From Alphaproteobacteria bacterium UBA6178 (GTDB lineage Bacteria; Pseudomonadota; Alphaproteobacteria; Rickettsiales; UBA3002), in assembly GCA_002422205.1 (NCBI GenBank), contig DITS01000033.1:4083-68082 (forward strand): a stretch of 64,000 nt of DNA, read 5' to 3'. Below are positions 6,935-52,198 of this stretch, one piece after another. Made by a program: the position numbers and the translations under genes. Positions within the stretch are counted from its first letter, which is position 1. Each line of letters opens with the position of its first letter. Under the pieces are notes generated by a model, which was given only the letters and a program-made list of their open reading frames with translations, was not told where the DNA came from and did not search any database.

Positions 6935-7132
6935 ATGGCGTTTGGCAATATCATGTTGCTTGTGGTGATGCTGGCGGTGGCAGGTGTGCTGGTGACGGGC
7001 GTGGTGGTGATGGCGCGCGGCGGCGAAGCTAACCGTAAATATGGTAATAAACTGATGGCATGGCGCGTGGGGCTGCAAGGGCTGGCGCTGGCGGTGCTGG
7101 GCGTTTTGTTTTTGCTTTCGGGTAAGTCGTGA
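6935..7132 (+). CDS. twin-transmembrane-helix small protein (HIG1 domain)
   Basis: 65 aa with two TM helices separated by ARGGEANRKYGNKLMAWRV. The ATG directly follows the zf gene stop. Confidence 0.7.
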   Translation: MAFGNIMLLVVMLAVAGVLVTGVVVMARGGEANRKYGNKLMAWRVGLQGLALAVLGVLFLLSGKS

Positions 7133-7220
7133 TTCGTGGTTCGTTATTCGTCGTTCGTTATTCGGGATTCGTTATTTAAGAACTCTTTCGAATCGCGAAC
7201 GACGAATAACGAATCACGAA
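7127..7220. repeat. inverted repeat with 7-bp-periodic arms (GTGATTC GTGGTTC GTTATTC GTCGTTC GTTATTC GGGATTC ... GAATCGC GAACGAC GAATAAC GAATCAC)
   Basis: It starts at the HIG1 stop codon and probably acts as a terminator hairpin. Confidence 0.8.
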
Positions 7221-7304
7221 ATGCTGCACTGCATGACAGCTATTTGTGTGCGGGGGAAAATAACGCTATACTGAAGCCAGAAGAATAAAAACAAGGGAGG
7301 CATC

Positions 7305-8060: not shown

Positions 8061-8061
8061 G

Positions 8062-8136
8062 GGGCTAGAGGCTAGAGGCTAGGGACTAGATTAGTAAGGG
8101 CCCTCACCCCGACCCTCTCTCGCAGGGAGAGGGGAT
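8062..8136. repeat. composite repeat: heptamer tandem (GGCTAGA x4, degenerate) + CCCTCACCCCGACCCTCT..AGAGGGG palindrome
   Basis: Lies in the etfB-etfA spacer. The palindromic part recurs at 24337-24379. Confidence 0.8.
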
Positions 8137-8154
8137 GAAGATGAAAGGGAATGT

Positions 8155-9618: not shown

Positions 9619-9664
9619 TTCAATGTACTGGAATCGATCAGGGAAACATGCTACGCACAGCATT

Positions 9665-11410
9665 ATGACGGAAAAACTTACCATTGCGTGCGCGCAAATT
9701 AATCTGGTTGTTGGGGATGTTCCCGGCAATGTGGATGCGATTGCGGACTGGACGCGGCGCGCAGCAGCGCAGGGCGCGGATTTAATTATATTCCCCGAAA
9801 TGGCGATTACCGGTTATCCGCCGGAGGATCTGGTGTTTAAGCGTTCGTTTCAGCAGGCGGCGATGCGCGCGGTGGAGGAGCTAGCCAAAGAACTGGCTGA
9901 TTGCCCTACGGCGGTGCTGGTGGGCGGGCTTTGGCGCGAAGGGGATGCGGTTTATAATGCAACATTTTTGATAGAAGGCGGGGCGTGCGTGCATCGCCAG
10001 TTTAAACGCTCGTTGCCGAATTACGGCGTGTTTGACGAGAAGCGGCTGTTTGCTAAGGGCGAGCGGGCGGAGCCCGTGATGTGGCGCGGTGTGTCGCTGG
10101 GGATTTTGATTTGCGAGGATGTGTGGGACGAGCGCGGGCCACGCCAACTGAAAAAACATGGGGCGGAATTGCTGATTGTGCAAAACGCGTCGCCTTACGA
10201 GATGGGCAAGGCACGGCGGCGCAAGCATGTGGTGGATATGGCGGCGAGCCAAAATAATCTGCCGGTGATTTATTTAAATCTGGTGGGTGGTCAGGATGAG
10301 CTGGTGTTTGATGGCCGCTCATTTGCTGCGCATCCGGACGGAGCGGATGTGATGAAGCTGGCGGCGTTTGATGCGGAGCTTGGCATTACGCAATGGGAAA
10401 AGCAACCCAAAGGCTGGCGCTGTGTGCAGGCGCCGATGGAGGCCACGCCCGATGATTGTGAAACGATTTATCAGGCGATGGTGCTGGGCCTGCGCGACTA
10501 TGTGAATAAAAACGGATTTAAGGGCGTGGTGATCGGCATTTCGGGCGGGATTGATTCGGGCCTGAGCGCGGCGGTGGCGGTGGATGCGCTGGGGGCCGAG
10601 CGCGTGCGCGGGCTGCTGATGCCATCGCGCTATACGTCGGATGAGAGTGTGGAAGATGCGCGTGATTTAGCGCAGCGGCTGGGTTTTCGGCTGGATATGA
10701 TTGGGATTGAACCGGCGATGGCCGCGTTTGATGGTATGTTGCGCGAGGTGTTTGCGGGCTTAAAAGCCGATACGACGGAAGAAAATATTCAGGCGCGGAT
10801 ACGCGGAAATTTGTTGATGGCGATGAGCAATAAGCTGGGGTTCATGGTGCTGACCACTGGCAATAAATCGGAAATGTCGGTGGGGTATGCGACGCTCTAT
10901 GGTGATATGTGCGGCGGGTATTCGGTGCTGAAGGATGTGTATAAGACGACGGTGTATAAATTGTCGTGGTGGCGGAATCAGTGCTCAGAGTTCAGAGTTC
11001 AGCGTTCAGGAAGCGAAGGGCAGCAAACCCCCTCCTTAGTCCTCCCCCTGGAAGGGGGAGGGAGGGGTGGTGGTGGAGCGCCATTGATTCTGGCCGGCCC
11101 TGCGGGTGAAGTGATTCCTCAGCGGATGATTACGAAAGCGCCGACGGCGGAGCTGAAGGCGAATCAGAAGGATCAGGATACGCTGCCGCCTTATGAGCTG
11201 CTGGATGCAATGCTGATGGGGCTGGTGGAGCAGCGCTTGTCGGTGGATGAGCTGGTGGATCAGGGGTTTGACCGCGCGGTGGCGAATCAGGTCGCGCGCA
11301 TGGTCTATGTGGCGGAATATAAGCGTCGCCAGTCGCCGCCGGGGGTGAAAGTATCCGGCATGGCATTCGGGCGCGACCGGCGTTATCCGATTACTAATCG
11401 GTGGATATAA
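9665..11410 (+). CDS. nadE: glutamine-dependent NAD+ synthetase (CN-hydrolase + NAD synthase domains)
   Basis: MTEKLTIACAQINLVVGD..., FPEMAITGYPPEDL, GISGGIDSGL, and TKAPTAELKANQKDQDTLPPY. It contains an insertion of about 35 aa encoded by a repeat at 10984-11067. Confidence 0.93.
   Translation: MTEKLTIACAQINLVVGDVPGNVDAIADWTRRAAAQGADLIIFPEMAITGYPPEDLVFKRSFQQAAMRAVEELAKELADCPTAVLVGGLWREGDAVYNATFLIEGGACVHRQFKRSLPNYGVFDEKRLFAKGERAEPVMWRGVSLGILICEDVWDERGPRQLKKHGAELLIVQNASPYEMGKARRRKHVVDMAASQNNLPVIYLNLVGGQDELVFDGRSFAAHPDGADVMKLAAFDAELGITQWEKQPKGWRCVQAPMEATPDDCETIYQAMVLGLRDYVNKNGFKGVVIGISGGIDSGLSAAVAVDALGAERVRGLLMPSRYTSDESVEDARDLAQRLGFRLDMIGIEPAMAAFDGMLREVFAGLKADTTEENIQARIRGNLLMAMSNKLGFMVLTTGNKSEMSVGYATLYGDMCGGYSVLKDVYKTTVYKLSWWRNQCSEFRVQRSGSEGQQTPSLVLPLEGGGRGGGGAPLILAGPAGEVIPQRMITKAPTAELKANQKDQDTLPPYELLDAMLMGLVEQRLSVDELVDQGFDRAVANQVARMVYVAEYKRRQSPPGVKVSGMAFGRDRRYPITNRWI
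10984..11067. repeat. composite repeat (heptamer tandem CTCAGAG/TTCAGAG/TTCAGCG + CCCCCTCC...GGAGGGGG palindrome) inside nadE
   Basis: It has the same architecture as the intergenic copy at 1221-1273. It is translated in frame as SEFRVQRSGSEGQQTPSLVLPLEGGGRGGGG. Confidence 0.8.
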
Positions 11411-13594: not shown

Positions 13595-13671
13595 GGGGAT
13601 TCCCCTTAATCCGCTGCGCGGATTCGGGGAATGACGGCAAGGTGAGGGGCGCGGATTCGGGGAATGACAGG
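13595..13671. repeat. hairpin/direct repeats (GCGCGGATTCGGGGAATGAC x2, GGGGATTCCCC palindrome)
   Basis: The direct 20-mers lie at 13616-13635 and 13649-13668, between gltX and cysS. Confidence 0.75.
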
Positions 13672-13710
13672 CAGGGGGCTGCACGGGTTTGGGGAATGGG
13701 TAGAGGTACG

Positions 13711-15075
13711 ATGAAACTGCAATTTTATAATACACTGACGCGCCGCAAGGAAGAGTTTACGCCGATTGATGCGCAGCATGTGACGATGTATGTGTGCGGG
13801 CCGACGGTGTATGCGCGTCCCCATATTGGGAATGCGCGCAGTGTGGTGGTGTATGATGTGTTGTACCGGTTGCTGACGCATTTATATCCGAAGGTGACCT
13901 ATGCGCGCAATATTACCGATGTGGATGATAAAATTAATGCGGCGGCGATGGAGCGCGGTATTAGCATTCAGGCGCTGACGACGGAAGTGACGCAGCAATT
14001 TCATGATGATATGGATGCGCTGAATTGCCTGCGCCCGAGCATTGAGCCGCGTGCGACTGAGCATATTGATGGCATGATTGCGATGACACAGCAGTTGATT
14101 GATAACGGTCATGCGTATGTGGGCAGCGATGGGCAGCATGTGCTGTTTGATGTGACGAGCTACGCGGATTATGGTGCGCTATCGGGCCGTCAGATTGACG
14201 AGCAGGAAGCGGGCGCGCGCGTGGCGGTGGAGGGCTATAAAAAACACCCAGGGGATTTTGTGCTGTGGAAACCTGCGGATGCGCAGGATGATGCGTCGAG
14301 TGTGTTTGACAGCCCGTGGGGGCCTGGGCGGCCCGGCTGGCATATTGAATGCTCGGTGATGAGCACGCATTATTTGGGTGCTACATTTGACATTCATGGG
14401 GGTGGTGCCGATTTGAAATTTCCGCATCATGAAAATGAAATTGCACAAAGCTGCTGCGCGCACACTGACAGCCAGTTTGCGCGCTATTGGGTGCATAATG
14501 GGTTTCTGACCGTGAATGGCGAGAAGATGTCGAAGTCGCTGGGGAATTTTGTGACGGTACGCGATTTGCTTGATCGCGGCATTAAGGGCGAGGTGATTCG
14601 GCTGGCGCTGCTGATGAGCAAATATAATGAGCCGCTGGATTGGAATGATGAGAAAGTGCGTGAGGCGGAGAAGCTGTTGGATAAGTGGTATCGGGCTTTA
14701 GATCGTCATCCGCGCGAGCACTCTCATGTGGAAAAAGATTTTAAGATTCCTGCTTTCGCAGGAATGACAGATTTTATTGCGGTGTTATGTGATGATTTAA
14801 ATTTCCCTAAGGCGATTGCTGCGGTGCAGCAAATGCCGGAGGCTGATCAAATCGGCGCCGCGAAATTTTTGGGATTACTACAGCAGGATGCGCAGCAATG
14901 GTTTAAAGGTGTTCAAGCGGACGGCGATATTGAGGCGCAGATTACGGTGCGGGCGGAGGCGAAAAAGAATCGTGATTTTGCCACCGCGGACCGCATTCGT
15001 GACGAGTTGAAGGCGCAAGGGATTATGTTGGAAGACCGGCCTGATGGCACGACCGACTGGCGGCGGGGTACTTGA
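13711..15075 (+). CDS. cysS: cysteine--tRNA ligase
   Basis: MKLQFYNTLTRRKEEF, CGPTVYARPHIGNARS, and KMSKSLGN. It contains a 9-aa in-frame repeat insertion (KIPAFAGMT). Confidence 0.95.
   Translation: MKLQFYNTLTRRKEEFTPIDAQHVTMYVCGPTVYARPHIGNARSVVVYDVLYRLLTHLYPKVTYARNITDVDDKINAAAMERGISIQALTTEVTQQFHDDMDALNCLRPSIEPRATEHIDGMIAMTQQLIDNGHAYVGSDGQHVLFDVTSYADYGALSGRQIDEQEAGARVAVEGYKKHPGDFVLWKPADAQDDASSVFDSPWGPGRPGWHIECSVMSTHYLGATFDIHGGGADLKFPHHENEIAQSCCAHTDSQFARYWVHNGFLTVNGEKMSKSLGNFVTVRDLLDRGIKGEVIRLALLMSKYNEPLDWNDEKVREAEKLLDKWYRALDRHPREHSHVEKDFKIPAFAGMTDFIAVLCDDLNFPKAIAAVQQMPEADQIGAAKFLGLLQQDAQQWFKGVQADGDIEAQITVRAEAKKNRDFATADRIRDELKAQGIMLEDRPDGTTDWRRGT
14743..14770. repeat. hairpin repeat AAGATTCCTGCTTTCGCAGGAATGAC inside cysS
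   Basis: 8-bp stem with a TTTC loop. Near-identical copies lie at 15103-15130 and 52133-52160. Confidence 0.85.
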
Positions 15076-15102
15076 TTCTCATCGCCGTGAATGCGGAGGC
15101 AT

Positions 15103-15130
15103 TAAGATTCCTGCTTTCGCAGGAATGACG
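15103..15130. repeat. hairpin repeat AAGATTCCTGCTTTCGCAGGAATGAC (intergenic twin of the cysS copy)
   Basis: Lies 28 nt after the cysS stop. It matches the 14743 copy in 27 of 28 positions. Confidence 0.85.
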
Positions 15131-15181
15131 GGTTCTATGCAGAATGAGTGGTATGGTGCAATGCAGCGTCAATGCGGTGGA

Positions 15182-18400: not shown

Positions 18401-18418
18401 GTGAAGGTTTTATGAAGA
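18401..18418 (-). promoter_or_regulatory. Pho-box-like direct repeat upstream of orphan 17395-18336
   Basis: In gene sense: TCTTCATAAAACCTTCAC, 65 nt from ATG 18336. It overlaps the ATG of the divergent trmJ-like gene. Confidence 0.5.
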
Positions 18419-30240: not shown

Positions 30241-30562
30241 TGGATTCTAGAGTTCAGATTTCAGATTTCAGAGTTCAGAAAGGTGTCATCCCGTCGCATG
30301 GCGGGGTCTGCTTTAAGTGAAGGAAGGCCGGATGCCGTGATGAACACGGCATGACAAAAAACGGAAATGTCAGAGTTTAGAGTTAAGAAAGGTGTCACCC
30401 CGTCGTATGACGGGGTCTGGTCGGCCTAGGAGGAAGCAAGGCCGGACTCCGTAACAAGTACGGGGTGACGGTGTGGGGCTTCTTTGCGTTGTCATACCCG
30501 CGGAAGCGGGTATCCAGTAAGGGAAGTATGGCTGGATTCCCGCTTTCGCGGGTATGGCAAGA
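30241..30562. repeat. dense array of repeats (heptamer tandems + four GTCAY...RTGAC hairpins, including a 68-bp composite at 30491-30558)
   Basis: TCTAGAGTTCAGATTTCAGATTTCAGAGTTCAGA; GTGTCATCCCGTCGCATGGCGGGGTC; GTGTCACCCCGTCGTATGACGGGGTC; GTCATACCCGCGGAAGCGGGTAT...ATTCCCGCTTTCGCGGGTATGGC. Confidence 0.8.
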
Positions 30563-30587
30563 TTAAAATACCGAGGCTAATGCAAAA

Positions 30588-52093: not shown

Positions 52094-52160
52094 GTCATCC
52101 CTGCGGAAGCAGGGATCTTCATGGGAGGTGGATTAAGATTCCTGCTTTCGCAGGAATGAC
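52094..52160. repeat. 67-bp composite element with GTCAT...ATGAC termini (two opposed hairpin repeats)
   Basis: GTCATCCCTGCGGAAGCAGGGAT-cttcatgggaggtggattaag-ATTCCTGCTTTCGCAGGAATGAC, in the murG-murC spacer. It has the same architecture as 30491-30558. Confidence 0.8.
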
Positions 52161-52198
52161 GGCAATAGAGGATAATTATAAAGCATGAAGGTAGTCGT

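Follow-up and report, generated by a model that had tools for sequence, protein, structure and literature searches.

According to two summaries of the work of Ogata et al. (2000, 2002), Rickettsia palindromic elements (RPEs) are inserted in frame in many housekeeping genes, at surface positions of the encoded proteins, and RPE-1 to RPE-10 are single, wholly palindromic elements of about 100-150 bp, each family having its own conserved peptide (PMC10969869, PMC3767692). Internal fusion of small repeats with coding sequences occurs occasionally (PMC3184786), and the REP sequences are extragenic by definition and, like BIME (bacterial interspersed mosaic elements) and REPIN, are linked to RAYT transposases (PMC3333891, PMC2817692, PMC3116915). 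In the present work an in-frame insertion of repeat DNA is described in nadE, the gene encoding the NAD+ synthetase, of Alphaproteobacteria bacterium UBA6178. It lies in a window of 64,000 nucleotides, which is the whole stretch of DNA that was analysed (contig DITS01000033.1, positions 4,083 to 68,082 of the forward strand), and positions given without a prefix are counted from the first letter of this window. An initial annotation, made from the sequence alone, had reported a composite repeat in this gene and had compared its behaviour with that of the RPEs.

The cyanobacterial STRR sequences are dispersed heptanucleotide tandem repeats. Further repeats with units of seven nucleotides are TAACTGA in Beggiatoaceae, Cyanobacteria and Bacteroidetes (PMC4679880) and GGGAATC and GGGGAYT in Xanthomonas and Nostoc (PMC4692102). 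They are mainly intergenic, and the copies that fall in open reading frames (ORFs) are found at the ends of proteins or in hypothetical proteins (PMC4679880, PMC4692102). One orientation of TAACTGA has stops in all frames, so that the other alone fits ORFs (PMC4679880).

The insertion in nadE

The segment within nadE is a lineage-specific insertion of dispersed repeat DNA which preserves the reading frame (Table 1). When the gene is aligned at nucleotide level with that of its closest relative a single clean gap of 87 nt is obtained, and a G-run on the 3' side leaves the boundaries of the insertion uncertain by about 3 nt. The DNA of this relative comes from a Logan contig on which the genes are in the same order (L018); its NadE protein (P0002) is 81% identical, is without the insert and reads RWRNGYAGA-LPLLLGPEGEVIP. 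The insert, of exactly 29 codons, begins on a codon boundary directly behind a conserved Asn codon. At the empty site the relative reads AAT GGC TAT GCC, the junction being placed after AAT, with no seed resembling the heptad or the hairpin module that make up the insert. Moreover, synteny with L018 extends over 9 kb at about 75% nucleotide identity and breaks solely at repeats, namely at 7135-7221, at 8061-8152 and at the nadE site.

Of the 31 genomes of the same order, 29 give a match to NadE that stops at about residue 453 and continues from about residues 486-496, and in an alignment with 11 relatives of the family the extra residues are present in this NadE only. A search of 5.8 billion proteins provided a set of 119 NadE homologues, in 115 of which the loop between WRN and (V)IP-RM has at most 22 residues; in the protein studied here it has 44, which places it among the four outliers. 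The closest of the homologues that carry names come from uncultured, metagenome-assembled genomes labelled 'Rickettsiales bacterium' and are at most 66% identical. The alignment of orthologues, which the initial annotation had proposed as a check, delimits the insert to 10979-11065 and finds it absent from the 81%-identical orthologue and from the relatives examined. A metagenome scan for the 5' junction of the insert gave zero matches.

The ORF of nadE is intact over its 595 codons, with an N-terminal CN_hydrolase (carbon-nitrogen hydrolase) domain and a C-terminal NAD_synthase domain by Pfam, and the insert falls exactly where the NAD synthase profile is split, between its positions 167 and 168. 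It is the sole PF02540 gene, and hence the only NAD synthase gene, of a genome of 2.18 Mb with 52.7% G+C, a draft of 52 contigs that is 100% complete as judged from marker genes. The invariant columns of the alignment include the catalytic Glu, Lys and Cys of the nitrilase-type (CN_hydrolase) domain and the SGGxDS PP-loop. Decay of the gene was considered and is ruled out, as this is the sole NAD synthase and every invariant residue is kept. The earlier statement that a repeat lies inside nadE without disturbing the frame is therefore borne out by the intact ORF and by a gap that starts on a codon boundary. The segment reads ...WWRNQCSEFRVQRSGSEGQQTPSLVLPLEGGGRGGGGA..., the read-through of the whole repeat segment is ...WWRNQCSEFRVQRSGSEGQQTPSLVLPLEGGGRGGGGAPL..., and SGSEGQQTPSLVLPLEGGGR is an example of a peptide predicted from the translated insert.

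Table 1. Positions in the window of nadE, of the insertion with its component parts, and of neighbouring repeats
Feature	Position	Strand or place	Observation
nadE, glutamine-dependent NAD+ synthetase	9623..11410	+	intact 595-codon ORF
In-frame insertion in nadE, 87 nt, codons 453-481, QCSEFRVQRSGSEGQQTPSLVLPLEGGGR	10979..11065	+	gap against the 81%-identical orthologue
Heptad element AGTG-CTCAGAG-TTCAGAG-TTCAGCG-TTCAG	10980..11009	+	genome family AGAG-(TYCAGAG)n-TTCAG, stop-free orientation
Purine-rich linker GAAGCGAAGGGC	11010..11021	+	likeness to AAG-rich junctions between modules elsewhere in the genome
Diverged module B hairpin	11022..11065	+	covariance model; 5' extension, stem 11041-11049/11053-11061, loop GGA
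GGCTAGA heptad array and canonical module B	8061-8152	between etfB and etfA	the two genes overlap (ATGA) in the 81%-related genome
Two inverted arrays of heptad TTCGTGA/TTCGTTA	7127-7220	after gene end	long hairpin; break against the relative at 7135-7221

Parts of the insert and their distribution

A single module of 84 bp had been proposed, in which heptamers are followed by a palindrome. The heptamers CTCAGAG TTCAGAG TTCAGCG TTCAGG are found at 10984-11010 exactly as described, and the hairpin CCTCCCCCT-GGA-AGGGGGAGG is present at 11041-11061 with an outer C-rich/G-rich stem. However, only the 3' half is palindromic, and in place of one module there is an 87-nt mosaic of two independent repeat families joined by a linker.

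Matches to TTCAGAGTTCAG with at most one mismatch number 12 in the window against 0.07 expected, and about 33 heptad arrays are found genome-wide. The heptad copies of this genome are a discrete element and no ragged microsatellite: 29 of the 33 arrays have 4-5 units with fixed phases, starting with xAGAG and ending with TTCAG. The copy in nadE has the canonical length of 30 nt and its 5' end lies at most 1 nt from the boundary of the insertion. A variant of the unit in which the A at position 6 is replaced by C, TTCAGCG, is shared by genic copies, at 10998-11004 in nadE, at 19020-19040 in a gene of the SpoU family and at C42:29758-29771 in hisF. This variant, by which the AGA codon is lost, could represent a subfamily or could indicate selection on the translated copies.

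The second family, module B, is a common repeat of this genome with the form GCCCTCACCCCGACCCTCTCCC-TGA-GGGAGAGGG and 94 matches. A covariance model built from 37 genomic copies, whose E-value calibration is rough, matched 11022-11070(-) over its full length with 17.8 bits (E=7.4e-4), the third match in the window after two true copies; the G-rich tail of the nadE copy extends to about 11070. The nadE hairpin is accepted as a diverged module B because it follows directly after the heptad element, in the order and orientation of the composites at C50:67276(-) and in lipB (C52:42323(-), internal to the gene), which are also better sister composites of the insert than the copy at 1221-1273. The comparison of the flanks of module B at C50:67276 gives the AAG-rich junction 'TTCAGGAAAGAGCCCTCACC', an example of the junctions that the linker resembles. 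Module B lies within about 20 nt after the heptad array in 6 of the 33 arrays, including those of tgt, leuS and lipB, a pairing that is far more frequent than expected by chance from the density of module B. The intergenic copy at 1221-1273 had been said to share the architecture of the nadE insert. It does share the heptad element and a purine-rich stretch that includes the 12-mer GGAAGGGGGAGG, but it has no C-rich arm and no match to module B, and its heptads run on into a different small module, GGTCAGGAGACC. A scan of the window with Rfam found RNase P only.

The case of nadE is not special, for at least 10 other housekeeping genes carry the heptad array in frame. Twelve arrays lie in long open frames, every one of them in the TTCAGAG sense, and about two thirds of the arrays are intergenic. 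In-frame copies are present in the Pfam-confirmed genes tgt, dapE (M20), hisH, hisF, ubiD, xseA, lipB and a SpoU methylase, and in most of these the Pfam domain match spans the site of the array. The array of carA is a C-terminal extension, and that of leuS lies in an ORF of 898 codons whose name is given from sequence motifs only. Heptads together with module B are found inside the coding sequences of tgt (...SRVQSP..LPLPAGEGRGEG..), leuS (..LPLPQGEGRGQG..) and lipB (..PGPLPEGEGE..), where the peptides encoded are similar to the composite peptide of nadE, ..FRVQRS..LVLPLEGGGRGGGG... TTCAGAG is read as (FRVQSSE)n and is free of stops in every frame. Its complement CTCTGAA yields TGA in all frames, given that 7 and 3 share no factor, and this explains why only the sense orientation occurs within genes.

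Other hairpin modules are also found inside long ORFs of this genome. The gene encoding a SpoU-family methyltransferase, 18412-19257(+), has modules at 18729-18813 and 19013-19046, all in frame; these comprise the hairpin modules TGTCATGCCGTC..GACGGCATCC and GACCCCGTCATGAAGACGGGGTGACA and a TCCAGCG/TTCAGCG heptad element, and the Pfam match falls in two stretches. An ORF of 390 codons beside tgt (C37:63704-63931) contains an apparent in-frame module B (..PHPAPLPQGEGEEK..) and a dRS3-like hairpin (..VIPAKAGIQ..). A hairpin family ATTCC(C/T)GC-N4-6-GC(G/A)GGAAT (GATTCCTGCTTTCGCAGGAATGAC) occurs at 2574-2610, 14741-14777, 15102-15138, 30531-30567 and 52133-52169, the copy at 14741 being inside the long ORF 13642-15075; its outline is shared with the neisserial dRS3 repeat ATTCCC-N8-GGGAAT.

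The heptad array was found in 10 of the 31 genomes of the order, with 73 matches in the genome studied here, 31 in G014, 24 in G001 and 22 in G025. It was found in none of the closest sampled genera of the order and in 0 of 300 other genomes sampled evenly across the phylum. Module B is present in 21 of the 31 genomes, and one copy in G025 lies inside the nadE frame of that genome, in the gap between the two domains, the frame itself being uninterrupted. This patchy spread of both repeats is typical of expanding repeats. In another genome of the order, G028, the pattern read backwards as a control, (GACTTGA)n, was found 27 times and belongs to a different heptad family; different 7-nt units have expanded in different genomes of the order. 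Other NadE proteins of the clade carry inserts at the same two sites, for example VIPAKAGI... (the translation of GTCATTCCCGCGAAAGCGGGAATC) and KPSPLAGEG, and since these inserts are unrelated in sequence, the two loops can be regarded as permissive hot spots.

Outside this phylum the exact (TTCAGAG)3 array is found sporadically in many phyla, with at least 120 stretches among the matches listed. At the loci of these phyla that were examined, long ORFs contain 18 of the 89 arrays, each of them sense-oriented, and the genes concerned include those for alanine racemase, ArgJ, a Mur-ligase-family protein, ThiC and a flavoprotein of the Sdh/NadB type. A single pan-bacterial TTCAGAG element was also considered and is ruled out by the heterogeneous ends and lengths (3-27 units) of the arrays elsewhere and by the lack of matches in the 300 phylum-sampled genomes. 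Of 5,426 complete Escherichia coli genomes, 4,537 contain a relative of module B at a median of 8 places each, and it is intergenic and unannotated there. Its occurrence in both E. coli and this alphaproteobacterium is a surprisingly wide range for so small a repeat. One such palindrome, related to module B, lies between ygfF and gcvP in NZ_CP025856.1 and reads CCCCTCGCCC-TTTCA-GGGAGAGGG-CCGGGGTGAGGGG. The name boxC was suspected for the E. coli relative; it goes unmentioned in the review, and module B is left unnamed here.

Probable origin of the insert and its predicted effect on the protein

It is very probable that a composite piece of the repeat mosaic of this genome, consisting of the 30-nt heptad element, the purine-rich linker and the REP-like module B hairpin, was copied into nadE after the lineage had split from its 81%-identical relative and was tolerated as a neutral or slightly deleterious loop. 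Its persistence could be explained by a length that is a multiple of three, by heptads in their sole stop-free orientation, by a hairpin read in a stop-free frame and by a site in what appears to be a permissive surface turn, at the end of the helix YKTTVYKLSWWRN and just before IP-RMITK-PTAEL. The insert would then be transcribed and translated together with nadE as a 29-residue disordered loop rich in glycine and serine. For the copying route our guess is recombination or template switching from a pre-existing composite donor.

The protein data are consistent with such tolerance. In 4F4H and 5KHA, the closest solved NadE structures, the stretch between ...YRNxxxE and (D/V)(I)VPERI is only 1-3 residues long, in agreement with the initial annotation, which had placed the site between the WWRN and IP..ITK.PTAEL blocks and had expected a short loop there. 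An AlphaFold2 model calculated from the 119-sequence alignment has a predicted template modelling score (pTM) of 0.88 and a mean predicted local distance difference test (pLDDT) of 86.6. Residues 445-472 of the model, which follows P0001 numbering (ORF numbering minus 14), are coil with a pLDDT of about 30 (<50) and come after a helix at 427-439. The insert is thus predicted to be a tolerated, disordered loop at the surface, and most likely it adds to the enzyme nothing but this floppy stretch of 29 residues. Tolerated selfish or filler DNA with a neutral or slightly deleterious effect, and no functional module, is its most likely nature.

Several observations weigh against copying of such a composite. 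The hairpin half has diverged more than a recent insertion would predict, with 17.8 bits against 45-76 bits in typical copies of module B. Its assignment to module B depends on the roughly calibrated E-value of the covariance model, and a search with nhmmer and the module B profile gave no significant match to the nadE hairpin (about 2-3 bits, E about 200). When the whole insert was compared with its own genome by BLAST the heptads alone matched, the matches of 12-14 nt to the hairpin half being not significant. The RNA fold of the insert (-39.5 kcal/mol, z -1.16 against shuffles) is not better than that of shuffled sequences. No match to a Y1/RAYT transposase (PF01797) was found in this genome with a search in which the positive controls matched. 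In addition, neither terminal inverted repeats across the 87 nt nor a target-site duplication at the nadE junctions were found, so that the insert does not have the features by which a MITE is recognised. With no mobilising enzyme, inverted repeats or duplication, the 'insertion' in nadE is therefore defined by comparison and not by mechanism. Moreover, translation of the insert and correctness of the assembly are both read from the frame-preserving sequence only.

The neighbouring sites at which synteny with the relative breaks bear on the same question. The flanks of the insert between etfB and etfA are TATATGA...TGTATGA where the relative has a single TGTATGA, and this repetition may be a target-site duplication of 7 nt, or may reflect selection that keeps the stop and start codons of the two genes. 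At 7135-7221 the inverted heptad arrays of the window correspond to nothing more than single TGATTC and TTTCGTG motifs in the relative. These seeds suggest that at some sites arrays have grown in situ, on both arms, and they too weigh against copying. Could the array and hairpin of nadE also have arisen in place, without any donor, by replication slippage or local duplication of short seeds? The variable lengths (3-27 units) and end phases of TTCAGAG arrays in other phyla are as would be expected from slippage, and the missing target-site duplication at nadE agrees with it. Nevertheless, the array of nadE shares its length of 30 nt and its start and end phases with 29 of the 33 genomic copies and has the partner module of the other composites, with order and orientation unchanged, and the empty site of the relative is seedless for both modules. 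An origin in place is considered unlikely for nadE and, because the length and ends of the element and its partner and order are canonical and the empty site has no seeds, copying of a ready-made composite is favoured there.

Once in place the insert might have been exapted, becoming a selected functional addition to NadE such as an interaction or regulatory loop beside the flexible PTAEL active-site loop. The conserved K-PTAEL segment lies about 10 residues downstream of the site, the same two NadE positions have repeatedly received inserts elsewhere in the clade, and the unusual divergence of the hairpin half could reflect adaptation as coding sequence. However, the AlphaFold model predicts disorder, the 81%-identical orthologue does not have the insert, and the same sequence is also found in a dozen unrelated enzymes and in intergenic DNA. 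The inserts of other lineages at these sites, being unrelated in sequence, fit permissive sites and not a shared function, and we regard exaptation as very unlikely. A chimera or mis-join induced by repeats was also considered, since the repeats are multi-copy, the genome is a draft of 52 contigs and the metagenome scan found no other sample carrying the 5' junction. Yet contiguous nadE sequence in one frame is found on either side, and an addition of exactly 29 codons from a codon boundary would be rare for a mis-join. The same frame-preserving pattern is seen in ten other genes, and analogous in-frame inserts are present in independent assemblies of other lineages. An assembly artefact can hence be given hardly any credence.

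Beyond nadE, it is conceivable, although we put this forward tentatively, that the fixed-end heptad element and its hairpin partners form an undescribed mobile mini-module, devoid of inverted repeats, RAYT and clear duplication, which copies itself into permissive loops of essential enzymes. Singly or in ready-made composites it would enter the same hot-spot loops again and again, the two NadE sites among them, and it would be active in relatives of the Rickettsiales other than Rickettsia. If this were true, translated selfish DNA would have been tolerated earlier and more broadly than in the case of the RPEs, and this tolerance would offer a general route for rewriting protein loops.

Comparison with described repeat systems

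Translated repeats in essential genes have so far been regarded as peculiar to Rickettsia and Wolbachia. In the relative studied here, which is outside these genera and has a genome of 2.2 Mb, unrelated modular elements, namely a 7-nt array and a REP-like hairpin, behave in the same way, and the filled and the empty nadE site can be directly compared in a near relative. The pattern points to a simple rule for the survival of such insertions, by which they carry no stop in the orientation that is read, have a length divisible by three and fall in a permissive loop. It also indicates that specific loops of NadE tolerate 30-50 extra residues. In-frame inserts of this kind also inflate protein length, split domain matches and can mislead annotation.

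For the dispersed heptamer repeats, which are poorly understood, nadE provides a well-anchored case. As in those repeats, TTCAGAG has units of 7 nt, about four copies per site, tens of sites and a patchy spread across phyla. Unlike the TAACTGA type, TTCAGAG arrays are found amid conserved enzymes, here and in other phyla, and the array of this genome is an element with fixed ends which is coupled to hairpin modules.

Module B resembles REP and BIME in being a short, GC-rich, imperfect palindrome with about 94 matches that forms mosaics with other motifs and linkers. In contrast with REPs, its copies in nadE, tgt, leuS and lipB are inside coding sequence, and by inspection its consensus does not have the GTAG/CGTC tag. 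The genome also differs from those with REP or REPIN in having no RAYT, as judged from the absence of PF01797 matches.

The likeness to RPEs is found at the level of behaviour. The repeats of nadE are dispersed between genes and are also found in frame, with the frame kept, inside unrelated housekeeping genes; the encoded segment would, according to the structural model, occupy a loop at the surface that is compatible with the fold, as is the case for RPEs; and the host belongs to a part of the Alphaproteobacteria related to the Rickettsiales. The differences concern the element itself. The nadE insert has 87 nt and combines a non-palindromic direct array of 30 nt, which has no inverted partner, with a hairpin of about 43 nt, and the heptad array and the hairpin each also occur alone or with other partners. 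In addition, its host is neither Rickettsia nor Wolbachia. No RPE family was found in Rfam. Membership of an RPE family is not supported, as size, architecture and host set the insert apart. What stands of the comparison made in the initial annotation is the presence of in-frame repeat DNA in unrelated housekeeping genes. As an analogy the RPE-like reading is right; its scope is too narrow, however, and a family assignment would appear to be wrong.

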